From positions 1 to 64,000 of the IMG/VR virus record IMGVR_UViG_3300042940_003205: 64,000 nt of DNA; one strand, given 5' to 3'. Below, piece after piece: positions 4,401 through 33,907 of this stretch. Position 1 is the stretch's first letter; the number at the start of each line of letters is the position of its first letter. A model generated the notes under the pieces. The model saw only the letters and a program-made list of their open reading frames with translations, was not told the DNA's origin and searched no databases. This stretch comes from a virus. A program made the position numbers and the translations under genes.

Positions 4401-7228
4401 CAAGTGGCGTATATCAAATTGTTTACATTGATACTAACTACAATTATTATTTAAGAAAAGTAAAATACAATTCTGTAAATGGTCATTTAGACTATGCCAA
4501 AAGATTAGTAAGCCATTCTTCATCAGCTGGAAATACAATTTATTTAGCAAGACCAGAATCATCAACTTCTGTGTTCACTTGGTCTACTTCTAATTATGCT
4601 GATTCTTTGCTGGATGTTTATGTAGTTTCTACTGGTGGAACTGTAATAAACAAAACATACAGTACGGATTACACTGTTGATGCATCTTCTGGTAGGTTGA
4701 ATATTTCGGGATCTGGCTGGACTGGAACTCTTTATGCCTATCTATACAAAGATTCTAATGTTCCAAAATATAATCAAGAGCCAAAGCAAACACTAAATAG
4801 ATATCATTATATTCCTCAAGTACTTAAGGATAAAGCGTTTATTTTATCCCCAGATGCTAAATTGTCTTCAACTTGGACTGTAGATACTGAAAATTTTCAA
4901 ATCGTAAACATAATTGGAACAGCAACTACAACTGAAATAAAATACAACAGAGATAGAAGTTCTTGGCTATCAACTTTTGATTCAAGCAAGAATTATTCTT
5001 CAAACGCTAATGTTATTGTAGAAAATGATTCTACTACAGATTATTTCTTTACTAGTAGACTTTCACAAGATGGTTTTTATGTTCAAACTGGAGTTGCAAA
5101 TAGTTCAACATTTAGTGGAAGTTTTGTAGATCCAGTATCCCTAAATGCTATAGGTCTATTTTCTGGAGACGTTTATCTAGATAAAGCTTATCAACCATCA
5201 GGATTTGCATTAACTTCTTGGTATTCTGGGTTAGGCTTATCCTTTGACATAAATGTTCTTGTCTTGAAAAATAAAACAAGTTCAGATTATTCTGACACTA
5301 CTATAGATTCTTCATTTACCACTTCTTATTATGATGATATCAACAGATTAGTCACACATAATAAATCTGGAAAAAGAGATCAAAAATTATATACTTTTAA
5401 AAGATCTGAAATACAAGAAGTAACCTTGAATTACAGTTCAGCATTTGGATCTTCTTTGTATCCAACCACTGTAAGGCTTTCAAACTCAGCAGGTTTCGGC
5501 ACTTTTAGTTTGTATTTTGATCCAGCCAGTACCAATATTAGTACATCATCAAGATCTTGGATTGATGTGAGTACAAGAACCACTTTTTCTGCAGCAGCTG
5601 GGAATACTGGTAATATTCCTGATTTTGGAGATATAACTTATATACCTGTTATAGGCCCTATGTCAGCTCCTTATGGAACTGGAAGTACTGCTATGTTGGA
5701 TGGTTATACTATCTCAGCTGGCGACACTATTTTGATAAAATCTCAAACAGATAGCACCATCAACGGAATATATACTGCTGTTTTAAATAACAAATTTGTA
5801 TTAACAAGAGCAACAGATCTCAATGCTACAAATGAATTGTATGAATTAGGTAGAGTAGTCTTCAATAATAGAACATACGAATTAAATCTCCCTGAAGATT
5901 CTACTGCTTATAATTTAGGTGCCTCTGCCTTAAATACACCATTGTTTTGGAAAAGCATTGGCGCAGAATATACTATTGATGTTGTTGGTGTTGGACATAC
6001 TAATTTCTCCAACTTAAGTGCTTTACCAGATAACATAAATGGGATTGCTACAACTCAAAATGATAAAATTCTATTCATTGCTCAATCAACAAGCTCTGAA
6101 AATATTGTAGCTAGAATTAACAAAACTGTTCAGCCAAACTTATTAAGAGTTGGTAATGGTTCATCTACAACAGAATTTCAAATTGCTAGTTTATATGTCA
6201 ATGATGCTAATAGAAATTTGAATTATGAATTATATTATAATCCATCTAACACTTCAGTTGGCTCAGACTCAATCCAATGGTTCCAACAAGGATTGATTTC
6301 AAATTTCACAAACTGTTCATTTGCTAGTACAGCAAACTTGACATTAAATTCAAATTTAAATATTTCCGGTTCTCAAAAAGGTGATCGATTATTAGTAAAA
6401 GATCAATCTAATCAAACCCAAAATGGAATTTATTCAATAGATGAATTAATTACAAATTATTTAAATAGACACGAAGCTTTAGATAGTTCTTCTGAAATAT
6501 CTGTCAATCAAAGAGTTAATGTTTTAAGTGGAACTGCAAATAGTGGAATTTATGCATTAGTGTATGATGAAAGTTTAACACCAGCTATAGATGCAACAAA
6601 TATATTTTGGGCAAAGGTAAATACAAATTCATATCTTACTAATGCTAAAGTTGCTACAGTTTCACAAATTTCCTTAACAAACCCACCAAGCAAAGTTGAT
6701 GATGTTATATTGCAAAAATACGACAGAATTTTAGTAAAAAATCAAACAGACAAAACTACAAATGGTGTTTACGTTGTTTCTTCAATTGGATCTTCAAATG
6801 TTTGGACAAGATCTACTGATTTAGATGCAAGTAATGAATTGTTACCACAGCTTTCAATACAGGTTGGTTATGGAACAACAAATGCTGATAAAAACTTTAG
6901 AATCAAACTGCCAACCCCAAGAACGATAACAAACACCCAAACTACATCGTATATTTTAGGTACTGATAATGTAGATTGGATTGATACAGCAAATTTCCAA
7001 ATATATAATTCATCACCTGAAACTTGGCAACCATTACTTTCTGGCTATGAGAATTCTGTCTTCCTCGGTGGTGCTAAACTAGGCATAGATCAAACAGCTA
7101 AAAGTAAAAGTTTTGGCATTGCTGTAAAAACACCTAGTTCTACTGTACTTTCTACCAATAATATTACCTCAAATGGGCAGGTAAGAAATATGAAATTCAA
7201 AGTAGAATACATAATAGCCAAAGATTAG
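1403..7228 (+). CDS. Large virion structural / tail-fibre-like protein, 1941 aa, with about 10 copies of an LVKxQxxxxNG(I/V)Y module
   Basis: Ser/Thr/Gly/Asn-rich; repeats such as DRVLVKDQTTNSQNGIY, DRLLVKDQSNQTQNGIY, DRILVKNQTDKTTNGVY with downstream WTRSTDLD-like segments, a module typical of phage fibre/decoration proteins. Confidence 0.7.
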   Translation: MSHAFIWSEVNADNSQSEISREISSAGFGTNISGTWNKKLFRLKWINTNVDDIRLWIDNEFADIYTTQHYPVIKNTDNIKLLQDLGFDIRFTLFDSFIINKLNADVATVSNLSSATIGGTSVIFTPTYVDGVKIDNTKIILVKSQTSAFQNGLYRVSSQVGSGTVGAIVAEDILTAGKIAAVGSSSFYLYGPYLNPFDTAAAGSTTFIWVDRTNRYALSPVQCATTVNLQSSGSGLTNSSLILDNRTLSVNDRVLVKDQTTNSQNGIYYVSSLTKPNASSLFNPYTSTDIADDYWKTAVNYINANIPVNVQFINAGVAKSGGYFRYYSAIGLTGGTASTASMKWSDATYNYGHTNVDYYYEITSGSAIGFSYDFGSNAGSLTSTPRTITNYSGVATTLSTSNRILVKHYNENFSGVYSVSNVGFGSTGLWVRATDYDTPAEINQTIVYAANSKNTLGGNIWYLGKSTTYSSTFKLNLDGIIIQERFYPYTYEPVANLIVTNQTDLTNVSETSFINSGIAISQRVLVNGQTTYPAQNGIYKVDSVCATVYGIEFNTNYSVLRGSIATISNGTVGAGTTYFLYAPGTSTASGSVGVTWVNMTNQNNLFVTASTTEDKFDSAYLSPTHFDVPVAIGTSVLVNTTNELVNGVYSVTAIGTSTKQVFKYDNSLSSWTQNIFSNILSSNGNGTYAISPNLKKQISGVLQVASIASTHYGEVFVPEILFPSFQNYENYFSSEGKGSSILQELDFDWYEQDYQKYNVKAVFFVSSAASLPATSGTAISSLIRSTSGAGRTILQSNDSVLVFVGSGYSSSSVSNGIFRPTFTGIGSVYFTPHEDFYYNTKFDLGSDKKSLASPYERPTLVKIDYGYMGAGTTFSYDKVYMQGEVGIRQGTFGSDYANADLEKYLHTGSEVYYQNSEIRINANALDLSKFPRLAPVQHILAADTTLDTINQDILTVRRNGVQLFSSRSGDAVQYPYEISDRVFYYSSNEDVYNSTVRKSTSGVYQIVYIDTNYNYYLRKVKYNSVNGHLDYAKRLVSHSSSAGNTIYLARPESSTSVFTWSTSNYADSLLDVYVVSTGGTVINKTYSTDYTVDASSGRLNISGSGWTGTLYAYLYKDSNVPKYNQEPKQTLNRYHYIPQVLKDKAFILSPDAKLSSTWTVDTENFQIVNIIGTATTTEIKYNRDRSSWLSTFDSSKNYSSNANVIVENDSTTDYFFTSRLSQDGFYVQTGVANSSTFSGSFVDPVSLNAIGLFSGDVYLDKAYQPSGFALTSWYSGLGLSFDINVLVLKNKTSSDYSDTTIDSSFTTSYYDDINRLVTHNKSGKRDQKLYTFKRSEIQEVTLNYSSAFGSSLYPTTVRLSNSAGFGTFSLYFDPASTNISTSSRSWIDVSTRTTFSAAAGNTGNIPDFGDITYIPVIGPMSAPYGTGSTAMLDGYTISAGDTILIKSQTDSTINGIYTAVLNNKFVLTRATDLNATNELYELGRVVFNNRTYELNLPEDSTAYNLGASALNTPLFWKSIGAEYTIDVVGVGHTNFSNLSALPDNINGIATTQNDKILFIAQSTSSENIVARINKTVQPNLLRVGNGSSTTEFQIASLYVNDANRNLNYELYYNPSNTSVGSDSIQWFQQGLISNFTNCSFASTANLTLNSNLNISGSQKGDRLLVKDQSNQTQNGIYSIDELITNYLNRHEALDSSSEISVNQRVNVLSGTANSGIYALVYDESLTPAIDATNIFWAKVNTNSYLTNAKVATVSQISLTNPPSKVDDVILQKYDRILVKNQTDKTTNGVYVVSSIGSSNVWTRSTDLDASNELLPQLSIQVGYGTTNADKNFRIKLPTPRTITNTQTTSYILGTDNVDWIDTANFQIYNSSPETWQPLLSGYENSVFLGGAKLGIDQTAKSKSFGIAVKTPSSTVLSTNNITSNGQVRNMKFKVEYIIAKD

Positions 7229-16787: not shown

Positions 16788-17279
16788 TTAGTCTTCGTCA
16801 TACATAAAATTTTCGTAATCCCAGTCTTCATCTAAAGGCTCCATATTATCCCAAACATCAAAAACAATTTTCAAATTGGTTTGGGATAATATGGACAAGA
16901 TGATTCCATCACACAAAGACATAATTAAATAAAAATTATTCAAATTTTTATCCAAAAATTTCACTGATGTATAGATTACATCACCAACTTTATTCTCAAT
17001 CTCAACACTCTCGACATCAGATTTGTATATTTCTAAAAGTTTAATAAATGCCTGATGTATGGTTTGTATATGAGAATTTTTATGATAATCTTTAGCTACA
17101 AAAGTTAACATTCCAGATTCATAAGAATTAATTTCACAAGCTGATTTTTTGTCCCCATCACTCAATACTACAAAAGATCTGCCTTCGGGGTTTACAACAA
17201 CACTTTCAATTAAGATAGGTATGAGCTCATAACGATTTCCGTTATTGATCGAATGCCTATCTATTTTTTTGTCTTTCAT
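16788..17279 (-). CDS. Degenerate bifunctional-nuclease (DUF151/BFN-like) protein
   Basis: FVVL...EINSYES...TIHQ...VESVEIE...VIYTSV...SLCDGIILS layout matches DUF151; start moved to the ATG overlapping the merC-like stop (ATGA). Confidence 0.65.
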   Translation of the reverse strand: MKDKKIDRHSINNGNRYELIPILIESVVVNPEGRSFVVLSDGDKKSACEINSYESGMLTFVAKDYHKNSHIQTIHQAFIKLLEIYKSDVESVEIENKVGDVIYTSVKFLDKNLNNFYLIMSLCDGIILSILSQTNLKIVFDVWDNMEPLDEDWDYENFMYDED

Positions 17280-17668
17280 TTCTTTATTCCACAAGTTTTA
17301 CAATGTTTGCACAATTTGTCATTTATCAAAGATGACAAAGCCATCAACAGTCCACCAAACACCATAAATATATTGAATAAATCAAATTGAATTCCATTAT
17401 GATGGTTATGATGATGCATCAATCTGCCAATTACAAAAATAAACAATCCTAATGCTAAAACAGCTACAGCTTTATTAGATTTGTGTTGTCTATATCCAAA
17501 ACATACATTTGTTATATTAAATAATAATGAAAGCCCCAATAATGCGAATTCAAAAGTTTCATTAATAAATAGATAAACACCAGTAGTTGGTATTAATATA
17601 ATAAGCAAAGGCACTATAGTACAATGAACGGCACAAATTATAGATGCCCACAATCCAACTTTCTTCAT
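17276..17668 (-). CDS. MerC-domain membrane protein (4 TM) with a His-rich loop
   Basis: GLWASIICAVHC, GYRQHK, four hydrophobic helices, HHHNHHN, C-terminal CKHCKTC. Confidence 0.8.
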   Translation of the reverse strand: MKKVGLWASIICAVHCTIVPLLIILIPTTGVYLFINETFEFALLGLSLLFNITNVCFGYRQHKSNKAVAVLALGLFIFVIGRLMHHHNHHNGIQFDLFNIFMVFGGLLMALSSLINDKLCKHCKTCGIKK

Positions 17669-19356
17669 TTCATCTTCTCTTTTGCTATTTCATGTACTAA
17701 TAAAGACTTCTCTTTAATTGTATCTTTTGCTGACTCTAAAAGGCTTGATATTAATTCTATATTTTGACTCTTACCATCTTCTTCAATGGAGTTCTTTAGG
17801 TCTTTCAAATCATTCATATCTTCGTTATTTAATACATTTGTTCTAAGTAATTCTTCAATTTGAATTTCACAATCATAAAGAAGATCGTGCATATTTGTAA
17901 TCTTTCTAAAACGCTCATCCTCTTCTTTGTGTTTTTGTGCATCATCAATAATTTTTGATATCTCTTCACTTGATAACGATGCTTGGCCAGTAATCTCAAT
18001 ATCTTTGTTGACTCCAGTATCCAGATCTTGAGCCTTGACTGAAAGTATACCATTTGCATCAATTTCAAATGCCACTTCAATTTTGGGTAATCCTCTAGAT
18101 TTCTCTTCAATACCACTAAGCTTAAATTCTCCAAGACACAAATTATCAACTGTTTTTGGTCTTTCTCCCTGATATATCTTTACATCAACAGAAGATTGAT
18201 TGTCATATGCAGTTGTAAAGATTTCCTTAACAACTGCTGGAACTTGGGTATTTCTTGAAACTAATATACTCATAATTCCACCTTGAGTCTCTACACCTAA
18301 TGAAAGAGGGCAGACATCTAAAAGAAACACTTCTCTGCTTGATTTTCCTGTCAAAACCGATGCTTGGATTGCTGCCCCTATCGATACGGCTTCATCTGGA
18401 TTAATTGACTTATTTGGCTTTTTTCCGAACTTTTCTTCAATGACTCTTTCAATCATTGGAATTCTAGTACTTCCACCAACAAAAACAACTTCATCAATTT
18501 TGTCAGACTTTACATTTGCGTCTCTTAATGCATCATTTACACAAGCTAAAGTTTTATCTATGTAAGTCTTAATTGACGTTTCGAATTCTTCACGAGTAAT
18601 TTTTGTTAGTTCTTTTCCAACCAAAACATTTGCTACTGTCATATGAGAAAGCATTTTTTTGGCTTTCTCTGATATGTTTCTAAGTTCAGCAGGGCTCAAT
18701 GTATTAGTAATTTTATTACAAATGATTTCACTTATAGCAGAATCAAAGTCTACACCGCCAAGAGATGTATTTCCTGAGGTAGATTGGACGTGAAAATCAA
18801 CTCCATCCATTAGTTTAAGCAAGGTTACATCAAATGTTCCACCACCAAGATCATAAACAAGAATAGTGGCATCATTCTTCTTATCTAATCCATATGCCAA
18901 AGATGCTGCTGTTGGTTCATTGATAATTCGTAAGACTTTCAACCCAGCTAATTCTCCAGCTGTTTTTGTTGATTGTCTTTGGTCATTGTTAAAATAAGCT
19001 GGAACAGTAATTACAGCTTCAGTAACTTCAGATCCTAAATGTCTTTCAGCACAATTTTTTAAATATTTTAATATGTAAGATGAAATTTCTTCTGGACTGT
19101 AAGATTTATCTTCAATGACAAATCTCTTATTAGTTCCCATATGTCTTTTAACAACACGTATAGTATGAGAAAAGGGCAAATGCTGTTCCATATCAACAGC
19201 ATATTGCCCTATATATACTTCATCTCCAAATGATACAACACTTGGAGTAATTCTTTCGCCTAAATCGTTTGGAATAACTTCTGCTTGATCATTCTCATTT
19301 ACATAAGAAACAACACTAAAAGTAGACCCTAAATCAATTCCAATAGCATGACTCAT
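17665..19356 (-). CDS. dnaK: Hsp70 / DnaK chaperone (compact, 563 aa)
   Basis: GIDLGST, TVPAYF, RIINEPTAA, DLGGGTFDV, VGGSTRIP, NPDEAV, linker LLDVCPLSLG, IDANGIL. Confidence 0.95.
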   Translation of the reverse strand: MSHAIGIDLGSTFSVVSYVNENDQAEVIPNDLGERITPSVVSFGDEVYIGQYAVDMEQHLPFSHTIRVVKRHMGTNKRFVIEDKSYSPEEISSYILKYLKNCAERHLGSEVTEAVITVPAYFNNDQRQSTKTAGELAGLKVLRIINEPTAASLAYGLDKKNDATILVYDLGGGTFDVTLLKLMDGVDFHVQSTSGNTSLGGVDFDSAISEIICNKITNTLSPAELRNISEKAKKMLSHMTVANVLVGKELTKITREEFETSIKTYIDKTLACVNDALRDANVKSDKIDEVVFVGGSTRIPMIERVIEEKFGKKPNKSINPDEAVSIGAAIQASVLTGKSSREVFLLDVCPLSLGVETQGGIMSILVSRNTQVPAVVKEIFTTAYDNQSSVDVKIYQGERPKTVDNLCLGEFKLSGIEEKSRGLPKIEVAFEIDANGILSVKAQDLDTGVNKDIEITGQASLSSEEISKIIDDAQKHKEEDERFRKITNMHDLLYDCEIQIEELLRTNVLNNEDMNDLKDLKNSIEEDGKSQNIELISSLLESAKDTIKEKSLLVHEIAKEKMK

Positions 19357-19371: not shown

Positions 19372-19725
19372 TTATTCTGAGTCTTCTGGTAAAACCGTGC
19401 CTCCTGGAACATATCCTTCCATTAATTCTTTCAATGAATCTTTATTATCTAACTTTTTCTTAAAGTCCAATGTTTCTTTTTTTGTTATTGGTCCGTTAGG
19501 AGATAATTTACTCTCATCTTTTGGCAAATTAGATCTGTAATCGTGAGCCATAGACATAAGTTGAGTAACTGCAAATGTGTCTTTACATTTTGGGCATCTC
19601 ATAATGGCATGCACTTCTACTTCTGATTTAGGAAGCCACCCAAGATGAGAGGCTTTAGTAAATTGTGCTTTGCAATTACGATTAAGACAACATTTAGGTT
19701 TGCCGACGATAGTTTGATGAAACAT
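19372..19725 (-). CDS. Zn-ribbon hypothetical protein
   Basis: CCLNRNC and CPKC pairs; start reassigned to ATG 19725 behind a GGAGGT SD. Confidence 0.65.
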   Translation of the reverse strand: MFHQTIVGKPKCCLNRNCKAQFTKASHLGWLPKSEVEVHAIMRCPKCKDTFAVTQLMSMAHDYRSNLPKDESKLSPNGPITKKETLDFKKKLDNKDSLKELMEGYVPGGTVLPEDSE

Positions 19726-19755
19726 AGCACACCTCCAATGCGCAATAGGCACTTT

Positions 19756-22276: not shown

Positions 22277-22495
22277 TTAACAATCCTTAGCTATAACTGA
22301 ATCATCTTCATCAGATGCATTAGGGTCTAAATCCATATCTGTTGTCAATGGAATAACCAATTCATCTTTGATTTGTGCGGTGACAGTTTCATCTTTCTTT
22401 TCATCTGCCCAAACAAGATTATCTGCAATTACTTCTTCACCTTCTGCATTAGTGAACTTTTCGATCTTGCCTGTAGCTCTCTTTACCATACTCAT
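22277..22495 (-). CDS. Small acidic hypothetical protein
   Basis: 72 aa, ATGA-coupled to the dnaJ stop. Confidence 0.6.
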
Positions 22496-23475
22496 AACAT
22501 TTGTCTCCTTTTCCTAGATTCGACATATGATTTTAAAAATTGTGATTCTTCATCAGAAATTTCTTTAGGAATTTTATACATAATTTTGAGGTGTAAGTCA
22601 GAATATGCATCATTTGATGTTGGAATACCTTTGTTTTTAACTATATGCACGTAACCATTCTTCAAGCTGGTATTGAACTTGAAATTTAACTTAGTACCAT
22701 TTACATGAGAGTATTTAAATTCTGGATCAATCAAAGCCATAATAGGATCTATTTCAAATTCGTGAATTAAATTTAAATTAGGATCAATTTCAAATTTATC
22801 TCTTGCTTTAGTAATTACTTCCACGATTAATGGGCCTGGAGCTTGATGTATATCTCCGTGATTTCCTCTGCCTTGTATCATTGAAGATCTGTAAACGTGA
22901 CCTTTGTTTATTGTCAAATCAAAGTTTTCATACATTTTTACAAAACCAGATCCAGAACAATAATTACAAAATGAATCAAATTTTTCACCACGCCCATAAC
23001 AATCACCGCAAGGACCAGCATATTCTCGGATGTGCATAAACCCCAAGTTACGTACTATATAATGTTCACCAGAACCCATACAGGTCATACAAATATTTTT
23101 ATTACCACTTCCACCAATTCCTGAACAGCCCCCACAAGGTACAAGACGTTCATAATTTAAGTTTTTAACTACATTTTTATAAACTTCTTCCAATTCTAAT
23201 TCAATCTTTAATGTTATCGGTGTGTTAAGATTTTTTCGGAATGGGTTATGTGCTGTGTTTCTAAAAGGATTTGCAGGAGGTTCAAAATGATGCTGAGGAG
23301 GTGGAGGATTTAAAATATCTTCATAAGCTTGAGATATTTCTTTGAATTTTTCTTCTGCTCCAATTTCTTTGTTCACATCAGGATGATATTGCTTTGCTAA
23401 CTTCCTGTATGCTTTTTTTGCATCATCTACTGAAGCATTGTGAAGCAAACCTAGAATATCATATGGATTCGGCAT
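22492..23475 (-). CDS. dnaJ: DnaJ (class A-like) co-chaperone lacking the G/F region
   Basis: J-domain with HPD, four CxxCxGxG repeats, C-terminal substrate-binding domain. Confidence 0.92.
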
Positions 23476-23487
23476 AAAATCATTATA
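23476..23487 (-). promoter_or_regulatory. -10 box TATAAT 6 nt upstream of the dnaJ ATG (leaderless)
   Basis: TATAAT-GATTTT-ATG, no SD; overlaps the upstream stop codon. Confidence 0.5.
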
Positions 23488-24157
23488 CTAATTTGGAAAG
23501 CATATTAGTAATTTTATTAGATGGACAAACAGCATTCTCACCAACGCCTATATCAGCGTGTTGTCCAGTTACACCCATAATAGTGCCGTAAACAAGATTG
23601 TCTGTACCTATAACCATACCGCCTGATGAACCTTCCAAGATATCAGCATCAACGAAAATAATGTCATTCCAAGCTGGCATATTTACGTCATTTATACTTT
23701 GGTGCAGATTAGATACTCTTCCAACTGTTGCTGTGTCGTGAAATCCTTCTGGAGATCCTATAACTGCAACAATGTCTCCCACTTCTACTGTGTCACTGTT
23801 GGCAAATTGTAAAGCAGGAATATTTGATGGAATTCTTTCTGCTCTTACTGCTCCAGAATCAATTGTAGGATCAGAAGTTAGAAAAGTGGCTGGAATAAAA
23901 TTTTTATTATCAAAAGTAATAAGAATTTCTGTCAAAGTTTCATCAGTTGGAACTACGTGTCCAGCGGTAATAATAATATTATTTCCAATGTGAAATCCAC
24001 TTCCAGACCAGTTTTTCTTTCCAGATCTCACATAAATGGAACAAGAAGCTTGAAGCCCCAATTGTATTGTTTTTTTAATTGGGTCTTCAAGCTTTTCTGT
24101 GCTCTGGCTAGTTTTAATCAAACTATCCAAATAATTAACATCTAATTTAAAATTCAT
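23483..24157 (-). CDS. Trypsin-like (S1, HtrA-type without PDZ) serine protease
   Basis: SGSGF, ITAGHVV (His), DSGAV (Asp), EGSSGG (Ser). Confidence 0.88.
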
Positions 24158-24612
24158 TGTATTACTTTATACAAAATCTCATTTTCTTCTAAAGTTCCAA
24201 ATCTTCTGCTATCATCTGAATTATCCAAATTATCTCCAATAAGATAATAATGGTTTTTTGGAACTTTTAATTCTAGCGTATAAGCATCATCAATATTTTT
24301 TGTTTGCACTATTGAACGATATGAATTATCAATAATAAGCTTGTAATATCCTTCTTTCTTCATTACATAATAGTAATATTCTTCTGGAGTATAAAGTATT
24401 CTTTTAACGATCAAGGATCTGTCATCACTCAAAGCAACTACTACATCGCTTTTTTTGAAATATTTAGTCTTTTTAGCTAACAAAATTTGCCCACTTTTGT
24501 AAGTAGGATACATCGATTGTCCAATAACTACAACTAACTTATAAGGCTGAAAATAAGCTAAAAGTAGCAATATACAACCAATGGCCAAAGAAACAATTAA
24601 TCTCTTTTTCAT
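24154..24612 (-). CDS. Signal peptidase I (S26)
   Basis: N-terminal TM, GQSMYPT (Ser), IVKRI (Lys), GDNLDNSDDSRRFG; GAGGTG SD. Confidence 0.9.
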   Translation of the reverse strand: MKKRLIVSLAIGCILLLLAYFQPYKLVVVIGQSMYPTYKSGQILLAKKTKYFKKSDVVVALSDDRSLIVKRILYTPEEYYYYVMKKEGYYKLIIDNSYRSIVQTKNIDDAYTLELKVPKNHYYLIGDNLDNSDDSRRFGTLEENEILYKVIQ

Positions 24613-24674
24613 GCTTCACCTCTTGTTGTAAAAGGAGCTGAAGACATTTCTTTTTTTTAGCTTTTTGCTCGTAG

Positions 24675-25637
24675 TTAAGATTTTTTAACAGTGATGTTTG
24701 ACCAATCAATATTTGCAAGTTTAGGAACACCAGGCCCCCAATTTTGTTCTTCTCCAGGTTGAACTTGATAATTTTGTAAACTTGAAATATTTCTCAATGC
24801 AACCATCATATCTTCTTGACAAAATTGGTTTCCAAATTCTGGTAGAAGATTCTGATTTTTCAATGCAGCTTTTATCAATGCACAAATACCAGCAACAAAT
24901 GGAGCTGATTGACTTGTGCCTGACATTTTACAATAGTTATTATTCAAATGAGTTGAATAAATATTAGTGCCTGGAGCAACAATGTCTACTGTAAAATCCC
25001 TTGAAGTGAAAGTGGCTAAATTTCCACTTTCATCTAATGCAGCAACAGCAATAACTTCATCGTATCTTGCTGGGTAATTTACTGCGTGTGAGTCGTTTCC
25101 GGCAGCTGCTATAACTACAATTCCTTTGGAAACTGCTTCTTTAATCAAATCGTGAATGAATGCTGGTGGTTCAGATGGTGCGCCTAAAGACATATTAATA
25201 ATGTCAACATCTAAATCAATTGCTTTTCTCAAACCTGCAGCAATTGTGTCATAACTTCCACCGCCATTATTGTCGAGAACTCTAATAGCATAGCATTTTG
25301 CTTTCGGAGCAACACCAACTACGCCAAAATCATTATCAGAACCAGCGATAATTCCAGCAACGTGTACTCCGTGACCACTACCTTGGTCGTTTACGCTTGC
25401 TTCAGATGTACAGTTGACAGCTTCATCAGCCTTCCAAGCTTCTACTAAATCAGGGTGTTCTGAAAATCCAGTATCAAGAATTGCAACTTTGATACCTTCA
25501 CCTTGCTTTGAAACTGCCCAGACCTCTTGAATATTTGCTAAGGCCATACCCCAGTTTTGAGTTTGAGACAATGCTGCAAAAGGAACTGGTGTAACCTTTA
25601 AATCTTCTTCAGGAATAAATTGAATCTTATCTTGCAT
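24675..25637 (-). CDS. Subtilisin-family (S8) protease, intracellular ISP-like
   Basis: LDTG, GHGVHVAG, AAGN, SGTSQSAP; no signal peptide or I9 propeptide; start reassigned to ATG 25637 behind GAGGTG. Confidence 0.93.
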   Translation of the reverse strand: MQDKIQFIPEEDLKVTPVPFAALSQTQNWGMALANIQEVWAVSKQGEGIKVAILDTGFSEHPDLVEAWKADEAVNCTSEASVNDQGSGHGVHVAGIIAGSDNDFGVVGVAPKAKCYAIRVLDNNGGGSYDTIAAGLRKAIDLDVDIINMSLGAPSEPPAFIHDLIKEAVSKGIVVIAAAGNDSHAVNYPARYDEVIAVAALDESGNLATFTSRDFTVDIVAPGTNIYSTHLNNNYCKMSGTSQSAPFVAGICALIKAALKNQNLLPEFGNQFCQEDMMVALRNISSLQNYQVQPGEEQNWGPGVPKLANIDWSNITVKKS

Positions 25638-25660
25638 TTTTTTCACCTCGATACAAGTAT

Positions 25661-25692
25661 ATTATTCTTTATATATTTTTCCTTATTCCTTT
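25661..25692 (-). promoter_or_regulatory. Putative late promoter AAAGG-N18-AAGAATAAT
   Basis: Consensus copy upstream of the protease trio. Confidence 0.5.
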
Positions 25693-28600
25693 ATATTATG
25701 TTAAGTATTTGACTTTCAATTGGTGTTCCGTAAATTGTTCCATCATAAGGTTTGACTATAAATGAAATCGCCATATTTCTTAAAACAACAGCGGAATTTA
25801 AAAGACTACCTTCAGCTATTTTATTTGACACCCCATTAGTCCATTCAAACCATTCAATATTGGATAAATCTGAAGAGCCATTGAAGTTGTAATAAGCTTG
25901 AAGAACACTATTTGCAGAAATCTTATTATCAACTATTATATTTGTAGATTTTATTTGAACGTCATACACATAAGGTGCAGATAAATTCTTAACAATTATA
26001 GGTTGAGAAGTGTAAGTAATTCCATAATCAAAATTATCATTTGGCTCAAGAGTTACATACACTTGATCATTGACATTGAAATATCCATTAGCAGCACTCA
26101 AATCTGCTTTCCTTTGAACCAATCTATCTCTGTAATTAGGTGTGGTGTCTAATTCTACGGTAGTTGTTCCGCCACCAGATGTTCTTGTTCTGTACCATCT
26201 TGTTCTTGGTTTGTATTGTTGATTTTCAGAAATATAATTGTAATCAACATACATTCTAGAAGCACTGGCAATTTGTTTTGTAGATCCAACGGAAGCATAA
26301 GAAACATCTGAATTCAAGACCAAACTTTCAGCTTTTAATGATGGAATATTTGTATTCAAATAATGAGAATATACATTTAGATTTGGCACTGAATTATGAG
26401 TAAATTCAAAGTTATAAGTTGTTGATGCAGTAGAAGAATATGTCTCTACCTTTAATCCTAATCTATATGTTGATCCTTGAAGAACAAATACAGTGACAAT
26501 ATCGCTCGCAGATTTATTAGTGTCAAATATAATTTTGCCATCATATCTATCTAATTTATATCCACCACGAACTATCTCATTATTTACAAGCACTACAACT
26601 TTACTGTCTTCAGGCCATCTACCATTTACAGCATAATAGTTTTTATAATCAGTAGAAACAGTGCCTTCTCCATAAGCTTCATATCTTGATCCTGTTCTGC
26701 TAATTGAAACTTGAACAATATTTCCTGTTGGTACTTCTTGTCTAAAAGTAATAGTTCCATTTACATTATCAATTGTGTACAGATTAGCGGTGACAAGAGA
26801 AGAATTCAAATATACTTCAACAGTGTCAGAAAGAAGCCAAGTAAATCTCGCATTATCATAATAGACAAAATAAGTAAAATTATTATTTAAGGACTTGATA
26901 GAAGTTAGCTTTTCATAAAATAAAGCGTTCGTATATTTATATGATCTTTGTCTTGAAGAAATTATTCCATTTTTGTTTTTGATAAGCTCTTCATAATCAT
27001 TCCAATTTGTGCTGTTTCCTTTACATATACCCCAAGTTAGTTTAGCCTTATCAGTGTCAGAATAGTCTGTTGAAAGAATATATTCAAAAATATCATCTGT
27101 GGAAGTGAGGGCAGATGTAAAGAAATAGTTGACAGCTGGAGATACTTCTGTGTAATACAATTGACTGACATATGGAGAAACAGGAAGACTTGTAGCATTG
27201 TTCCATCCTTCTGTCATATCAATTTGGAAGCTTAAATTAGTAATTTCTTTATTAAGTGTTGATGTTGAAGTAAGAATATTCCAATCACTGTAATTCTTTT
27301 TATCAGAAGAATACTTGTATTTAACTGTGCAAGAACTATCTACACTTTGACCTGTAGAAACTGTGTATGCTGTGGTGATTGATTTTATAAATTTAGAAGT
27401 TTCGAATTCTACAGATTTTGTCCAAGAACCAGCAAATAATGTGTTAGATCCGCCGTGCAATAAAGCAGTGGTAATTCCTGACCAATAAGAACTAGAAGCA
27501 TCAAAATACAATCCGTCTGTATTCTTTACCAATTGTCTCAAGCTTCCAGTGTTTGTTTTATCATCAACACCAAATGCAACTAATTTTGTGCCACGATTAT
27601 TCCAACTATAATTTATGTTGTCTTCAATACTTTTTAAAGAAACTGTCGTATTATTATCAGCATCAGAAACAATAAATGTTAATGGAATATAAGAACTGGA
27701 CAATAGATCCATTTCTTGTTTTGAGTCTATTGAACTATTTGGGATTGCTGCTGGTTGCTGTCCAATCAAAGCATATTCAAGACAGTCATAAAGATTACTA
27801 TTTTCACCATCAAGTTTCAAAAAGCCAATTATTGATGTGATGGCTATTCCTGAATTTGTAAAACCATTTCCAGTTTCGTGTTTGACAGAAGTGCCAAAAG
27901 TCCATAAATCAACAAAAGACAACTGACCATTTACGGGATCATTTGTTCTGTTGAGAATATTTGTTAAAAGATTGTTGAAACCATTTACAAAACCTGATGA
28001 CATTTGCATAGAAGCAGAATTATCAAAAACAGTAGAAATTACAAATTTTGGTTCAAGATACAAATAACCATCATTACCAGACGTAATGCCGCTTCCTACA
28101 CCACTATTCCAATTAACTTCAGTGTTATTATAATTGCCAATAGGAACGATAGTTTCTGTTGGAGCATATGCATCGTCATAGTGTGCTTGGAAGAAGAAAT
28201 CATAACTTGTGCTTATTCCAGTCCAACTAATAGCATTTGAGCTTGAATATCCTAACCCTGAAAATGGATTGTTTGTAGATGCTTTTTTCCACTTGAATAA
28301 AGGAACAGAGCTTGCAGTTTCTTTAATAACAAGAGCTAAAGTTGTTGATCCTGTACCTGGTATATCTAATTCGCTTGTAAGATTGAAACTAGTAAAACCG
28401 CCAACTTTTACACTAGAAGATGTAATAGGACTAGAAGCTGCCAATTGAGTTTGTGGTCTTACATTAGCGTCAACAGAATAAACATAAGCAGTAAGAGTTG
28501 TATTTGCTAAACTATCATTGTAAGAAGAATTTGAAAGACTGTCTTGATCTCTAATTGACAAGAATGCAGAAACTTTTGAAATTGTACTAGCTGTTGATGA

Positions 28601-31600
28601 AGTGGTGAATGTTTGCGCTAAATATCCAACAGAACCACTATCACTTGAAATAAACCTTATGTCATTTGAAGGCTTGGATGAGAATAAAACTGGGCTGTAA
28701 CCTTCACTTGTATTTTCACCAGTTCTATACCAGCAATCACCATCATCAAGAGTATACCAAATTCCATTATTAGTACAAGCAATTAAAACATTTTGAGTGA
28801 TAGAGTTGAATGTTGAAGAAAATACTTGAAGATCATAAACACAAGTAGGAAGTGTACCAATATAGTCAGATCTTTCAAATGTATTACCCTCATCAAAAGA
28901 TCTATAAACTCCATCATTAGTTCCGATGTAAATTTTGGATTTGCCAGGAGTATTTCCAATAGCAGCCTCTGTGTCAATAGCATAAGAGAAACAATGAAGT
29001 CCTCTCAAGAATCTACTATCAACAATAAAGTCAGAAGAATTTACATCATCAGGGTAAGAATATTTCCAGTTTCTTACCTTTAAAATTCCATCATTTGTAA
29101 GGATGAATAATGGATTTGCATAAGTGGTTGTATTCAATAAGGAAGGAACGCTATATGCTTGGAAAGATTTGTAATACTTATTTACACCTTCAGGATTACC
29201 AGCACTAAACATTTTTCTAGGCACAAGAAATGATGAAAATGATGCAAATTGAGTATCATTACCCATTACATAATAGCCATCATCTCCTGCTGCATGTAAG
29301 CTTTCGTATTCTTGAACATTACCTAAACTATTTTTGACATATGCGCCTTTGAAAATTCCATTTACATTGTTAATGGTGAGTTTTAAGAAATCAGACAAGA
29401 AATTGGTTGTTCCTAACTTAACACTTAATCCATCACTTGTTGCAAATGCTTCAAATAAAGTGCCATTCCAAAAGCCTGTGAGATAAGCATTTTGTCTTGC
29501 TGATGATGTTTGTTTTGTCCAAGAACCATCATATTTCCAAAGACCATTAGAAGCACCAGCAATTACTTCAAGATTAGGATTAAGCGTGATATAATTGGCA
29601 TCAAAAGCGCCATCTAATGTACTTTCAAGTTCCCAATACCCAGTATATTTCCAAACACCCTTCTCTGTAATGATTCTTGTTCCAGTGCCATCTTTTGTCA
29701 GCCCAACAATTCCCTTCACTTGGATTGGATCGTTTTCAAAATCATTCGCAGTAGGGATGAGTTGAGTTCTATTTTTGAAAGATGAATTCAAGCTATCAAA
29801 TTTAGCATTACTTGAAAAATTATCAATTAGTAATGTATTTTTCAAGCCTCTAGTGTCTGTCTGTGAAATTGTTGGTGCAGTGAAATCAAAAATAGTTGAA
29901 TTTAATGATTTAATTTTTCTTGCTAATTCTTGAATGTTAGAATTATTTTCTGATGCTAAATTATAAGTTTGATTGGATATAGCAAGATATAAATCATCTT
30001 CTAAACCAGATACAATTTCGTTCTTAATTCCATAAACTTCAGTGGCAACATCGTAAGTGGTTGTGCTAGTAAGTCTTGCTACAGATAAAGTAATTTCAAT
30101 AGGATAAACAGTATTGTCAAAAGATTTTACCACTGCCATCTCAAACTTATTGCCAGCCTTCAATTGAATCAAAGAATAATCGCTAATTCTTTGATTTACG
30201 TAGATTTTAATATCAGTATTGGAGTTTGGTTTAGTTAGTAATGCAATAGGGCTTTTAGTCTTATATAAGGGCACATAAGTAGAAGCATGAGGTTTTGTTC
30301 CAGCATCAGAAATTGTTGGGAAATCATTTACTATAGATATCTTTACATTATCAATATCACTCTTTAATACTGATTGTGTGAAAGTAATTTTGCCTTCTGA
30401 TGAGCTGGAATAAAATGGTATAGTACTAGGCTCATTGTTTATATAGGTGAAAAGTCTAGTGCTATCTGTTTGAGTGTCGTTCCAAAAGCTAGTGGTAAAA
30501 GTGTTGAAACTCTTCTCATAATAAACTTGATCGCCAGGAACATAAGAAGATCCCATAGCTACCATTTGATAAGGATAGTTTAAGGTAAAGTTGGTGATTT
30601 GATTGTAATCTTTATCAAATACTGCGAATTCTGTTTCATTTTCAGAAAATGTATCGTTGGGTCTCTTCCATCTATAATTCAAAGAAACTGTACTAGATAC
30701 GTTTACATCTTGCCATAATAGTTCAGTGCTTACAAAAATACCATTAGTTGTTCCAGCATATAACTTGCCAAAATTACTACCATCATCAAAACTGTAAAGT
30801 GCATTTGCTGAACCTTGGAAAACAGGCTCCCAAAAAAGTTCTGAGTAGGCTACAGATGTTCCTAAAGATGATTCTTGAACTCTTGCAACACCATTAGAAT
30901 GTCCAATAAAGTAATCTGTTGGAAATATTGTTGAATTTCTTTGAGCAACACAATTAATTACTGAACTTGAACCAGCCCCAGAAGGTGTTGAATTTTGATA
31001 TATCTTTAGCCTTTGAACTTCCCATAAGACATCAGAAGTGCCAAAATCAAAAGCATCTTCAACTACAAGATACCAAGTACTGTCGCCATTTACAGTTCCG
31101 CTTGATGCATATACTGTTTTCCAATTAATAAATTCAGCATTTACATCAAGTTCGGTAGATCTAGTCCAACTTCCAGCAGATGCAACATATATTCCATTTT
31201 CTGCTTTGTTGGTTTGATTTTTAACAAGAACAATATTACCGGCACTCACAGCAACACCATCAATAGTTTGTATACCAGTGAGATCTATATCTTCTGTAGT
31301 GGCGCATAAAGCATTTGAGAAAGATGCTGTTGATTGTGAAAATGGAAGAGACCAAAACTTACCTGTAGCATCTTCATAATATTTTGCTGTGTGAGTGATA
31401 AATGCCTGATAATCATTCCACCAGATAATATTATTTTTGTATGCGCCATCTTTTATCCAATAAATTCCCTTTACTTGCTCGTTAAATATTTGTGATAATT
31501 GGCTGAAATCTCCATAGTACAAACCTTTAGTACTAGTTCCAATTGCTCCAACATACAATACTCTTTGAATTGTGATATCGTCAGTCTCGCCAGCAACAAA

Positions 31601-33907
31601 TGTAGTCTTTTGTGTCGATAATTCTTCAATTGCAGAAAGATTGTAAATATTTGTTATAGCCACACCAGAAGAATTATAGAAGGTTGAAATTTCATTCCAA
31701 TCCCAATTTTGATATGCTGTATTGTCTGGGATGATGGCATAGTAAGCTTTATCTGATGTCAAACCATATTGATAAGTTTGATATGTTCCGTCAGCTAATT
31801 TATCAGAAGAAATTTTGAAACCAACTAATGTTTTTGCAATTCCACTAGCATCTCTTGGTAATTTTAGATCTTCCCAAACATTGCTTGTATTGTTGTAATA
31901 AACTTTTCCTAATGAAGTGAAAACATAAACATTTTTGAAATAATTTTCATTTGTTGGATAAATTATGTTATCTTGAAGCGATAAAATCTTTCCATAATCA
32001 TTTTGCCAGTTAGTTGTTTGCGCTGTATTACTGCCTAAATTGAAGCTAAACAATCCTCTAGAAGACGCAGCATAAATCAAGTTCAAACTAGTGATAATGT
32101 TTGCACTCTTATAAAAAGCGCTAATATTATCGTTGTATTGAATGTAAGAATTAGTATTTTGAGGATATAAATATGACTTGCCAATTCCAGTGGTTAAGTA
32201 TTTATCTGGAGTAAAAGTCAAAGGTTGCTTATATCTATTTTCGCTATAATGATTGATCTTTAAATTATTTATTGATATCTTGCCTGTAGATACACTGTTG
32301 GCAGATAAATTCTTAATGTAATCATTTGTAAGATCATTCTTGATTTCAGTTTTACGTGCTTTGATTACAACAGAAAAATCAAGGAAAGTATATTGAGCGT
32401 AATTTGGAATTGTATTCTTGAGTAAAATACAACCAGAATTTGGGTTGATTGTATAGTGTACTGGATCTATCAATGTTTCTGCCAAGTAAACTTCAGCAGT
32501 GTCATATTGAAAATCTGTCCAAGCGAATAATGTGTAAAGGTCAGTGGTCAAACCAGCAGCGTCAGTAAATTGATAAATTGTTCCATCACTTAACTTTATG
32601 TATGTGTTTAATGTGAGGGCGGTAGATAATATTTGTTGGCTTGCATTTACTGCAATTAAAGTCTTGTCAACAGCATATGGCAAATACACTTCGAGTTTAG
32701 ATGTTGATTTGATGCTTTGGGTAAGATAAATTTTATATGGACTACTAGATTCGCTTATTGTGTAATCAAGACTGGAAAGAATAGTTTCATCAAGTTTTAC
32801 AATTGGTGTGCCGTAAGATGAAATGGTGTCGTTAAATAAAGTACCATCAGCATTCTTTAATATAAAAATAGAATTGTTTTCATAGCTAGAAATTCCATCA
32901 TTAGAAGAAGCTGTAAGTACCAAATAATTTCCAAGATCTATCTTTGCTGCAGTGTTAATTTCACCAAGATGTTTATGCTTCAAATAAGATAATTGAAGCT
33001 GTCTTTGAAATTCTCCAGCAGTTTCATTTATTTGATTTCTTCTTTCTTCGTAGACTATTTCTGAAACAGTATTGAAATCAGTGTAAGTTGTATCTGCTTT
33101 GTAAATGACAGTGGCTAGATATACAGCATTAGAATATGTGTTGTATTTGGAGTCTGGAATTGATGGAAAAGATATATTACAAATTTCATCTGACAGGGTA
33201 GAAATTCCAGATTCAGCCCAGGCATAAAAAGTATTTGCTATTGTTTGTCTAAAGTAGCGTGGTTTTTCAGTCTTGGCAGCATATTTATCAATAATTCCAT
33301 CACCAGTGCTAACTTTGATACATTGTTTGAAAGCATCTTGGAAATAAAGATTTGATGAGCCTAAAGTAAAGTTTGCTGATGAAACAACACCAAGCCATAG
33401 TGTTTTTTCATTGGTTGATCCAGAACTTACATAAACAACAAAATTATCGGAATAATCAGATGTAGTATCAAGACTTGAATGTCTGGTCCACGTTGAAGCG
33501 GACACAGTATATACGCCATTTTGTGAAGCTGTGGATTGATTTTTTACTAATACAAGATTGCCAGCAACAACAGAAATTCCATCAATTGTTTGTGCGCCAG
33601 AAAGAGTGATATTTACGGTGGTAGCTGCTAAACAAGATACAGTGAAATCAAGATCGAGTAATGATAATTTCTGTCCATATTCACTTGTGGCGCTTGTGTT
33701 GTATCCATCAATAAGTAGTATTTGATCAGTTCTGTTATCAGATAGTTTAGATACATCCCAGCCATTTATAACTCCAGGGCCAAAAAAAGAATAAACGCCT
33801 GAAAAATTAGATTCAGCTGTAAGCATATTTTCATAGTCATAACCTGGATACCAAATATCGCCAAATGATGAATATAAAAACTTATAAATTGATGTACGAT
33901 TAGACAT
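25691..33907 (-). CDS. Giant tail/baseplate appendage protein (2738 aa) with LVKxQ modules, BNR-like beta-propellers, vWA domain and C-terminal Ig-like domains
   Basis: NLVLVKNQSTASQNGVY, NIVLVKNQTNKAENGIY, GVYRSFDEGNTF, IWYTLDDGDCW, vWA MIDAS FDNSASM...IVSDA. Confidence 0.7.
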   Translation of the reverse strand: MSNRTSIYKFLYSSFGDIWYPGYDYENMLTAESNFSGVYSFFGPGVINGWDVSKLSDNRTDQILLIDGYNTSATSEYGQKLSLLDLDFTVSCLAATTVNITLSGAQTIDGISVVAGNLVLVKNQSTASQNGVYTVSASTWTRHSSLDTTSDYSDNFVVYVSSGSTNEKTLWLGVVSSANFTLGSSNLYFQDAFKQCIKVSTGDGIIDKYAAKTEKPRYFRQTIANTFYAWAESGISTLSDEICNISFPSIPDSKYNTYSNAVYLATVIYKADTTYTDFNTVSEIVYEERRNQINETAGEFQRQLQLSYLKHKHLGEINTAAKIDLGNYLVLTASSNDGISSYENNSIFILKNADGTLFNDTISSYGTPIVKLDETILSSLDYTISESSSPYKIYLTQSIKSTSKLEVYLPYAVDKTLIAVNASQQILSTALTLNTYIKLSDGTIYQFTDAAGLTTDLYTLFAWTDFQYDTAEVYLAETLIDPVHYTINPNSGCILLKNTIPNYAQYTFLDFSVVIKARKTEIKNDLTNDYIKNLSANSVSTGKISINNLKINHYSENRYKQPLTFTPDKYLTTGIGKSYLYPQNTNSYIQYNDNISAFYKSANIITSLNLIYAASSRGLFSFNLGSNTAQTTNWQNDYGKILSLQDNIIYPTNENYFKNVYVFTSLGKVYYNNTSNVWEDLKLPRDASGIAKTLVGFKISSDKLADGTYQTYQYGLTSDKAYYAIIPDNTAYQNWDWNEISTFYNSSGVAITNIYNLSAIEELSTQKTTFVAGETDDITIQRVLYVGAIGTSTKGLYYGDFSQLSQIFNEQVKGIYWIKDGAYKNNIIWWNDYQAFITHTAKYYEDATGKFWSLPFSQSTASFSNALCATTEDIDLTGIQTIDGVAVSAGNIVLVKNQTNKAENGIYVASAGSWTRSTELDVNAEFINWKTVYASSGTVNGDSTWYLVVEDAFDFGTSDVLWEVQRLKIYQNSTPSGAGSSSVINCVAQRNSTIFPTDYFIGHSNGVARVQESSLGTSVAYSELFWEPVFQGSANALYSFDDGSNFGKLYAGTTNGIFVSTELLWQDVNVSSTVSLNYRWKRPNDTFSENETEFAVFDKDYNQITNFTLNYPYQMVAMGSSYVPGDQVYYEKSFNTFTTSFWNDTQTDSTRLFTYINNEPSTIPFYSSSSEGKITFTQSVLKSDIDNVKISIVNDFPTISDAGTKPHASTYVPLYKTKSPIALLTKPNSNTDIKIYVNQRISDYSLIQLKAGNKFEMAVVKSFDNTVYPIEITLSVARLTSTTTYDVATEVYGIKNEIVSGLEDDLYLAISNQTYNLASENNSNIQELARKIKSLNSTIFDFTAPTISQTDTRGLKNTLLIDNFSSNAKFDSLNSSFKNRTQLIPTANDFENDPIQVKGIVGLTKDGTGTRIITEKGVWKYTGYWELESTLDGAFDANYITLNPNLEVIAGASNGLWKYDGSWTKQTSSARQNAYLTGFWNGTLFEAFATSDGLSVKLGTTNFLSDFLKLTINNVNGIFKGAYVKNSLGNVQEYESLHAAGDDGYYVMGNDTQFASFSSFLVPRKMFSAGNPEGVNKYYKSFQAYSVPSLLNTTTYANPLFILTNDGILKVRNWKYSYPDDVNSSDFIVDSRFLRGLHCFSYAIDTEAAIGNTPGKSKIYIGTNDGVYRSFDEGNTFERSDYIGTLPTCVYDLQVFSSTFNSITQNVLIACTNNGIWYTLDDGDCWYRTGENTSEGYSPVLFSSKPSNDIRFISSDSGSVGYLAQTFTTSSTASTISKVSAFLSIRDQDSLSNSSYNDSLANTTLTAYVYSVDANVRPQTQLAASSPITSSSVKVGGFTSFNLTSELDIPGTGSTTLALVIKETASSVPLFKWKKASTNNPFSGLGYSSSNAISWTGISTSYDFFFQAHYDDAYAPTETIVPIGNYNNTEVNWNSGVGSGITSGNDGYLYLEPKFVISTVFDNSASMQMSSGFVNGFNNLLTNILNRTNDPVNGQLSFVDLWTFGTSVKHETGNGFTNSGIAITSIIGFLKLDGENSNLYDCLEYALIGQQPAAIPNSSIDSKQEMDLLSSSYIPLTFIVSDADNNTTVSLKSIEDNINYSWNNRGTKLVAFGVDDKTNTGSLRQLVKNTDGLYFDASSSYWSGITTALLHGGSNTLFAGSWTKSVEFETSKFIKSITTAYTVSTGQSVDSSCTVKYKYSSDKKNYSDWNILTSTSTLNKEITNLSFQIDMTEGWNNATSLPVSPYVSQLYYTEVSPAVNYFFTSALTSTDDIFEYILSTDYSDTDKAKLTWGICKGNSTNWNDYEELIKNKNGIISSRQRSYKYTNALFYEKLTSIKSLNNNFTYFVYYDNARFTWLLSDTVEVYLNSSLVTANLYTIDNVNGTITFRQEVPTGNIVQVSISRTGSRYEAYGEGTVSTDYKNYYAVNGRWPEDSKVVVLVNNEIVRGGYKLDRYDGKIIFDTNKSASDIVTVFVLQGSTYRLGLKVETYSSTASTTYNFEFTHNSVPNLNVYSHYLNTNIPSLKAESLVLNSDVSYASVGSTKQIASASRMYVDYNYISENQQYKPRTRWYRTRTSGGGTTTVELDTTPNYRDRLVQRKADLSAANGYFNVNDQVYVTLEPNDNFDYGITYTSQPIIVKNLSAPYVYDVQIKSTNIIVDNKISANSVLQAYYNFNGSSDLSNIEWFEWTNGVSNKIAEGSLLNSAVVLRNMAISFIVKPYDGTIYGTPIESQILNII

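Follow-up and report, generated by a model that had tools for sequence, protein, structure and literature searches.

The stretch of DNA analysed here, referred to as the window, is 64,000 nucleotides long and covers positions 1 to 64,000 of the IMG/VR virus record IMGVR_UViG_3300042940_003205. The whole record spans 103 kb and is ~29% complete according to CheckV. On the minus strand of the window, positions 17665..19356 form a single full-length open reading frame (ORF) for an Hsp70 of 563 amino acids (aa; Pfam HSP70, E 9e-163), termed here the focal Hsp70, the representative of a DnaK-derived, 'VD-type' phage Hsp70. Its nucleotide-binding cleft lacks the two salt bridges that latch the cleft of DnaK, the hairpin tip that carries the ‘GrpE signature’, and most of the residues on which the exchange factor GrpE docks. 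These changes are best read, and probably rightly so, as a sign of fast ADP exchange that needs no exchange factor.

The Hsp70 gene and its nucleotide-binding cleft

The focal Hsp70 is intact and under strong purifying selection, with a dN/dS of 0.09-0.12 in comparisons with four orthologues and one long-form relative. Its AlphaFold2 (AF2) model has a mean predicted local distance difference test (pLDDT) score of 88 and resembles solved DnaKs in fold. At 27 of 28 positions with a catalytic, allosteric or J-interface role, the residue is that of DnaK; the J-interface residues and the interdomain linker are intact, and the substrate pocket is DnaK-like, with A429, V436 and F426 kept. At the arch position 404, M is replaced by Q, and the ~30-aa C-terminal tail of DnaK is absent; both features fit a specialised rather than a generalist Hsp70. 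The presumed cognate J partner is a phage DnaJ of 327 aa (22492..23475, minus strand) that consists of a J domain with HPD, four CxxCxGxG zinc-finger motifs and a C-terminal domain (Pfam DnaJ 2e-18, DnaJ_C 5e-13, DnaJ_CXXCXGXG 3e-7). It has no real glycine/phenylalanine-rich (G/F) region and is syntenic with the Hsp70 gene in all relatives. The conserved core, the low dN/dS, the confident AF2 model and the syntenic DnaJ argue for a working protein rather than a decaying one.

The same features bear on an alternative role as a decoy or holdase, in which the protein would not mainly fold clients but manipulate host proteostasis or defence, for instance by tying up host J-proteins, heat-shock regulators or phage sensors that depend on DnaJ. 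Roles of this kind have been discussed for phage chaperones (PMC12619734), and one is shown for a phage J-protein (PMC3486835). Uncoupling from host GrpE would also suit hijacking. However, strong purifying selection has kept the catalytic and allosteric network, the pocket (A429, V436, F426) and the dedicated phage DnaJ, and because these are the requirements of an active chaperone cycle, a decoy or holdase role is improbable.

From E. coli DnaK, HscA and Hsc70, it is known that cleft latches and the loop of subdomain IIB tune how Hsp70s exchange nucleotide. Both elements are altered in the focal Hsp70, as seen in alignments of the phage family to numbered references (E. coli dnaK, hscA and hscC, taken from NC_000913). 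The first altered region is a segment of lobe IB (19189..19209, minus strand; phage residues 50-56), where E. coli GQPAKRQ aligns to GQYAVDM. V54 and D55 of the phage protein occupy the positions of E. coli K55 and R56, the latch partners and a point of GrpE contact. The second, defined by alignments and the AF2 model, is a remodelled subdomain IIB (18592..18711, minus strand; phage residues 216-255), composed of a shortened pre-helix segment, the helix ELRNISEKAKK and a tight β-hairpin. Here, E. coli RLKEAAEKAK aligns to ELRNISEKAK: E264 is replaced by N (N227 in the phage numbering), E267 is retained (E230), and R226 stands at K263. With V55, D56, N264 and E267 at the four positions (E. coli numbering, used from here on), the K55-E267 and R56-E264 bridges are both missing. 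An earlier note on this DNA had named the substitutions K55->V, R56->D and E264->N, all three of which the alignment to E. coli DnaK bears out; the equivalents of K70, E171 and T199, which it had listed as kept, are invariant in the phage Hsp70 alignment.

Subdomain IIB had further been described as about 20 aa shorter. The length holds, at 19 aa less than in E. coli DnaK and in phage relatives of 580-583 aa, but the shortening is made up of two deletions rather than one. A first deletion of ~8-9 aa lies ahead of the IIB helix (E. coli ~246-254). The second removes 10 aa at the tip of the hairpin (E. coli 288-297), and with them the GrpE signature at 290-295; its gap coincides in the alignment with that of E. 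coli HscA. As a result, the loop 276-302 measures 17 aa in the focal Hsp70, compared with 27 in DnaK, 17 in HscA and 18 in HscC. In the AF2 secondary structure, the trimmed subdomain is a helix followed by the strands E241-246 and E249-254, which are connected by a 2-residue turn, at a pLDDT of 86-94.

The docking surface for GrpE was evaluated at the 20 positions where DnaK contacts GrpE in 1DKG (PMC2940730, Table S1). At these contacts, 4/20 residues of the focal Hsp70 are identical to E. coli and 3/20 to the Gram-positive consensus, against an identity to that consensus of 47% over the whole nucleotide-binding domain (NBD). HscA keeps 3/20 and HscC 4/20, and canonical cellular and phage DnaKs keep 10-19/20. 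Ten of the contacts (E31, R56, Q57, E128, Y130, L131, G132, Q260, R261 and P284) are at least 97% invariant in cellular DnaKs; the phage Hsp70 keeps three. With the lobe I latch partners and the signature loop absent and 3-4 of 20 contacts left, the view that this Hsp70 has lost its signatures of GrpE dependence, the core of the earlier note, is upheld.

A set of 80 sampled Gram-positive-type DnaKs, which share the lobe-I architecture of the phage protein, served as the cellular reference. K/R55, R56, E/D264 and E267 are present in 80/80 of them and the 27-aa loop in 79/80, so the changes at the latch and in the loop exceed chance. In viruses the configuration is also rare: among 80 viral Hsp70 loci from IMG/VR, 78 are canonical bacterial/DnaK-type or eukaryote-like, and only two (L036 and L037) are VD-type.

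Relation to DnaK, HscC and HscA

The best match to the focal Hsp70 in both sequence and structure is the DnaK of Geobacillus kaustophilus (PDB 2V7Y/4ANI), a DnaK of the Gram-positive type (48% identity, E 1e-136). Like DnaKs of this type, the focal Hsp70 has no proteobacterial lobe-I insert at 76-101, carries a DnaK-like pocket and has a type-I-like DnaJ partner, and the tree places it inside the DnaK radiation. Unlike them, it lacks K55/R56, E264, the GrpE-signature hairpin, most GrpE contacts and the disordered C-terminal tail, and carries Q404. Against the NCBIfam DnaK model NF001413, it scores 574.6 bits, under the equivalog cutoff of 648 yet above the HscA models; a long-loop relative (L008) passes this cutoff with 682 bits.

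The closest analogue in architecture is HscC (E. coli YbeW), which the earlier note overlooked. The NBDs are nearly identical in layout, with 7 aa in the lobe-I segment of each, 13 in each pre-helix segment of IIB, and 17 in the focal hairpin against 18 in HscC; the full lengths are 563 and 556 aa. Both proteins have V55, keep E267 and only 4/20 GrpE contacts, and end in a short C-terminus. Among the traits by which HscC is recognised, the focal Hsp70 shows the loss of the GrpE signature and salt bridges, the lobe-I deletion at 76-101 and a length within 550-580 aa, although the lobe-I deletion is common to the focal protein, HscC and all Gram-positive-type DnaKs and is not specific to HscC. 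HscC is marked by 4-8 additional aa in loop L1,2 of the β-subdomain of the substrate-binding domain (SBD) and by the loss of 9 aa from lid helix B (PMC8215388). In the alignment, E. coli HscC has both traits and the focal Hsp70 neither. The J partners differ as well, being of the soluble DnaJ type for the focal protein and the tail-anchored DjlB/DjlC for HscC. Membership in HscC, suggested by the indel lengths of the NBD, is ruled out by the SBD features and by the long, distant HscC branch in the tree, and the likeness is convergent.

HscA and the focal Hsp70 have likewise both lost the salt bridges and 10 aa at the same position of the hairpin, and keep similarly few GrpE contacts. In contrast to HscA, the focal protein has no N-terminal extension of ~17 aa, and it carries A at arch position 429 and V at pocket position 436, where HscA has F and M. 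These arch and pocket residues, the missing extension, the tree and the NCBIfam score, higher for DnaK than for HscA, exclude membership in HscA. No hscB or iscU (isc) genes are found near the Hsp70 gene, and the neighbouring J protein is DnaJ-type. HscA has no signature loop and neither the K55-E267 nor the R56-E264 bridge, and releases ADP 700-fold faster; HscC is missing the same elements and is expected to behave like HscA (PMC8215388). That source also confirms the premise, taken up in the earlier note, that the bridges and the long IIB loop distinguish GrpE-dependent DnaK from the fast-exchanging HscA.

More than 100 protein clusters are shared at 77-100% identity with contigs of up to 381 kb, which places the window in a jumbo-phage lineage. 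The Hsp70 family of this lineage comprises 122 sequences, with V55 in 120/122 and D56 in 121/122. Members of 563-565 aa, which have both IIB deletions and N264, account for 113 of the 122; members of 580-583 aa retain the long hairpin and the pre-helix segment and combine them with V55, D56 and D264. In a quick maximum-likelihood tree (IQ-TREE, SH-aLRT support), the short forms make up a single clade (SH-aLRT 100) that lies among the long forms, and the long forms are nested in a wider phage clade with a hydrophobic residue at 55 (V/I/L) and an acidic one at 56 (D/E), represented by P0121, L008, P0125, P0127 and P0129. A scan of IMG/VR with P0121 gave no matches. The wider clade is sister to a KREE DnaK, and HscA and HscC lie distant from it. 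The hairpins of the long forms are homologous to canonical DnaK hairpins, which indicates that the IIB deletions are derived. The order of events given by the tree is that V55 and D56 arose at the base of the wider jumbo-phage clade and that the IIB deletions and D264N followed in a nested subclade. This describes a directional trajectory from a DnaK ancestor toward the HscA/HscC state; because HscA and HscC are far off in the tree, the endpoint is convergent, and the focal protein belongs to neither family.

One relative, G007 (300 kb), encodes both a VD-type Hsp70 and a canonical KREE long-loop DnaK; its Hsp70 genes lie at G007:254471-256288 (corresponding to L035 4472-6289, minus strand) and G007:116919-118595. 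The genome encodes three J-domain proteins and no GrpE. The two Hsp70s coexist much as DnaK does beside HscA or HscC in cells. A recent transfer of the canonical DnaK from a Bacillota host or donor was considered and rejected, as it is only ~65% identical to Bacillota DnaKs. Next to the canonical dnaK of G007 stand three tandem paralogues of ~430-442 aa, all starting with MAIFTVTSN (L035 7820-11735, minus strand), which may be duplicated structural proteins.

Other jumbo phages, namely the moraphages (PMC12619734), the Lak phages and the 480-735-kb ‘huge phages’, likewise combine very large genomes with phage Hsp70/J-protein pairs. Unlike the focal protein, their DnaKs are canonical, with KR[E/D]E, a 27-aa loop and 10-19/20 GrpE contacts. 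The DnaK and DnaJ of freshwater moraphages are mostly recent transfers from Flavobacteriaceae, one being highly divergent, and GrpE is never discussed (PMC12619734). Our literature search, incomplete in coverage, turned up no earlier account of a clade of phage Hsp70s whose cleft resembles those of HscA and HscC. The stepwise origin, the convergence on HscA and HscC, and the coexistence with a canonical DnaK in one relative are new in this analysis. The phage clade provides a natural series in which a DnaK-type cleft changes step by step into one of the HscA/HscC type, with the intermediates still living. Such a series could be used to ask which element governs the release of ADP and the dependence on GrpE, and whether specialised Hsp70s with few clients dispense with exchange factors.

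Nucleotide exchange and the GrpE question

No GrpE is encoded in the window, as the earlier note had stated, or in its ~29% complete 103-kb record, by a Pfam scan of the ORFs and a six-frame search with PF01025. The six-frame search is equally negative in G000, in the near-complete relatives G001 (358 kb, 89% complete) and G002 (378 kb, 100%), and in G007 (84%); G001 carries a short-form Hsp70 with 85% identity to the focal protein. In positive controls, PF01025 detects GrpE in 12-14/14 control genomes and in four huge phages (E 1e-19 to 8e-42). A custom GrpE hidden Markov model, built from 72 cellular genes, recovers the four phage GrpEs with E 3e-18 to 8e-40, and applied with --max to the six-frame ORFs of G000, G001 and G002 gives nothing better than E ~1. 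When the 257 ORFs of G000 and G001 with lengths of 100-300 aa were scanned by HH profile comparison, the best reached a probability of 5%, against 98-99.8% in the four phage GrpE controls. The idea that one of the small ORFs nearby (126, 147 and 168 aa) is a cryptic GrpE is rejected, since Pfam, NCBIfam and PHROGs are silent and the HH scan is negative; a second Hsp70 acting as an Hsp110-like exchange factor is rejected too, as G000, G001 and G002 each encode one Hsp70 only. These searches for an exchange factor were aimed at GrpE and at a second Hsp70. A cognate grpE is very unlikely to be present in this phage lineage.

GrpE is phage-encoded in four huge phages with canonical DnaK: LR756502, LR756504, LR745206 and Lak-A2. 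Complete phage-borne DnaK-DnaJ-GrpE (KJE) systems therefore exist in the largest phages. In two phages of ~640 kb, grpE lies ~10 kb from dnaK (483934-484359 and 494297-496075 in LR756502; 462789-463223 and 473654-475279 in LR745206). The presence of grpE was dropped as a correlate of the DnaK signature, since these four have GrpE and 0/15 others with canonical DnaK do. With the missing gene uninformative, the informative evidence is the lost GrpE-docking surface and the lost latches.

We propose that the gene encodes a functional phage Hsp70, descended from a Gram-positive-type DnaK, that would work with the phage's own type-I-like DnaJ. Its nucleotide-binding cleft has been remodelled toward the HscA/HscC state by the replacement of K55/R56 with V/D and of E264 with N and by the reduction of the IIB hairpin to a tight turn. 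Without the latches and most of the GrpE docking surface, ADP would leave quickly and unaided. Only DnaJ and client would then set the pace of the ATPase cycle, which would be uncoupled from host GrpE, a tuning like that of specialised Hsp70s with few clients. Fast ADP release and the loss of GrpE binding are what we infer here, together with the identity of the clients discussed below.

Several points weigh against this proposal. The kinetics are drawn by analogy with HscA and with DnaK mutants. The lack of a phage grpE is non-discriminating and silent on the use of host GrpE: 0/15 other large phage records with canonical DnaK encode GrpE, three of them at least 99% complete, so phages normally rely on the GrpE of the host. 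A full type-I DnaJ suggests broad client delivery and in cells is usually paired with an exchange factor. In Hsp70s of the M. tuberculosis type and in eukaryotic Hsp70s, one bridge is missing and exchange factors are still used. Within the cleft itself, V55, D56 and R263 are nearly invariant among the 122 family sequences, E267 is kept, and so are L257 and G32 of the GrpE-binding loop. The near-invariance resembles a selected new arrangement of the cleft, perhaps with a re-wired bridge, more than plain loss, and D56 and R263 could form a latch with swapped charges. The step from lost signatures to exchange-factor independence, taken in the earlier note, is accordingly sustained in part: the lost latch, loop and GrpE contacts and the 27/28 conserved core positions speak for it, but the absence of grpE does not discriminate and the near-invariant residues run counter to it.

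In its full form, the alternative reads that the cleft is re-wired and not opened: D56 would pair with R263, V55 would pack on the IIB helix, release would be slow, and host GrpE would act through a co-adapted or reduced interface. Besides the retained residues above, it would be consistent with the purifying selection on the IB and IIB cleft segments and with the canonical-DnaK phages that routinely lack a GrpE of their own and must use that of the host. Yet 16-17/20 GrpE contacts differ; R56, Q57, Q260, R261, P284 and Y285 are among them, and cellular Gram-positive-type DnaKs conserve these six at 97-100%. The signature hairpin is deleted, and HscA and HscC also lack it. In the long-form relatives, moreover, D56 is combined with D264, which would produce repulsion rather than a bridge. 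A re-wired, slow-releasing cleft is therefore unlikely, though it is the alternative to which we give most weight.

A further alternative is that an unrecognised phage exchange or escort factor replaces GrpE. The best candidate is a conserved Zn-ribbon protein whose ORF lies upstream of the Hsp70 gene at a distance of 15 nt (19372..19752, minus strand; a 126-aa ORF, or ~117 aa from the ATG at 19725), in the slot that grpE takes in Gram-positive operons. The protein carries C-x4-C...C-x2-C, with C13, C18, C44 and C47 invariant in 8 orthologues, and its N-terminal 63 aa are very conserved. It belongs to the same operon as Hsp70 and is syntenic with it in every relative, including one whose DnaK is only 54% identical. 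Hep1/Zim17, a zinc-ribbon escort protein of mitochondrial Hsp70, offers a loose analogy. However, the ORF has no Pfam or NCBIfam match, and its AF2 model, of moderate confidence (pLDDT 68), is not GrpE-like and has no fold match in PDB; no similarity in sequence or fold to GrpE, zf-DNL or any solved structure is found, and adjacency alone is no proof of interaction. A part for the Zn-ribbon protein as an Hsp70 cofactor is possible but unsupported, and the replacement of GrpE by such a factor is improbable.

Returning to exchange-factor-independent release, a broader evolutionary proposal can be made, more tentatively and at slightly short of an even chance. A phage lineage of ~300-380 kb may have independently evolved a third type of exchange-factor-free Hsp70, after HscA and HscC, with living intermediates in which the latch changed first and the hairpin and IIB segment later. 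In some phages it would stand beside a canonical DnaK, and a new Zn-ribbon cofactor encoded in the grpE slot may assist it. As a hypothesis derived from sequence, this points to a self-contained phage chaperone system of Hsp70 and DnaJ, uncoupled from host heat-shock control, which would fit phages that fold proteins of 1,000-3,500 aa.

Neighbouring genes and candidate clients

The Hsp70 gene is surrounded by phage genes, among them those for topoisomerase II subunits, for a helicase of the UvsW type and for giant proteins (1,941-3,468 aa) with head-decoration or tail-fibre modules. The operon runs from the Zn-ribbon ORF through Hsp70 and a MerC-like membrane protein to a 168-aa ORF, and DnaJ and three serine proteases lie ~3 kb upstream. 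This gene order is conserved in all relatives, including the one with 54% identity. The clients of the chaperone would likely be phage products of nearby genes, for example giant virion proteins, secreted or processed proteins from the neighbouring protease cluster, or the MerC-like membrane protein that is co-translated with it.

The MerC-like gene (17276..17668, minus strand; Pfam MerC 5e-20) is conserved in relatives, and its start overlaps the Hsp70 stop codon (ATGA, 17665-17668), an overlap from which the two genes appear to be translationally coupled. In E. coli, the J partners of HscC are anchored in the membrane, and HscC is associated with a phenotype of Cd2+ sensitivity (PMC8215388); set beside these, the MerC-like neighbour may be a hint at a client or a coincidence. 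The 168-aa ORF that closes the operon (16788..17294, minus strand) is a candidate for a bifunctional nuclease (BFN, PF02577) domain: a language-model feature search of the Atlas scores 0.95, and 28/30 matches are BFN_dom clusters. Pfam gives no match for this ORF, and the BFN assignment is a lead only.

The protease cluster (23483-25646, minus strand) comprises tandem genes for an S8 subtilase, an S26 signal-peptidase-like protein and an S1 trypsin-like protein, located directly upstream of dnaJ and conserved in all relatives. Two of the giant proteins, of 1,941 aa (1403-7228, plus strand) and 2,738 aa (25691-33907, minus strand), share repeated modules that match the same PHROGs (head decoration phrog_2647, tail fibre phrog_11518, and phrog_17264). 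These modular giant virion proteins are plausible chaperone clients.

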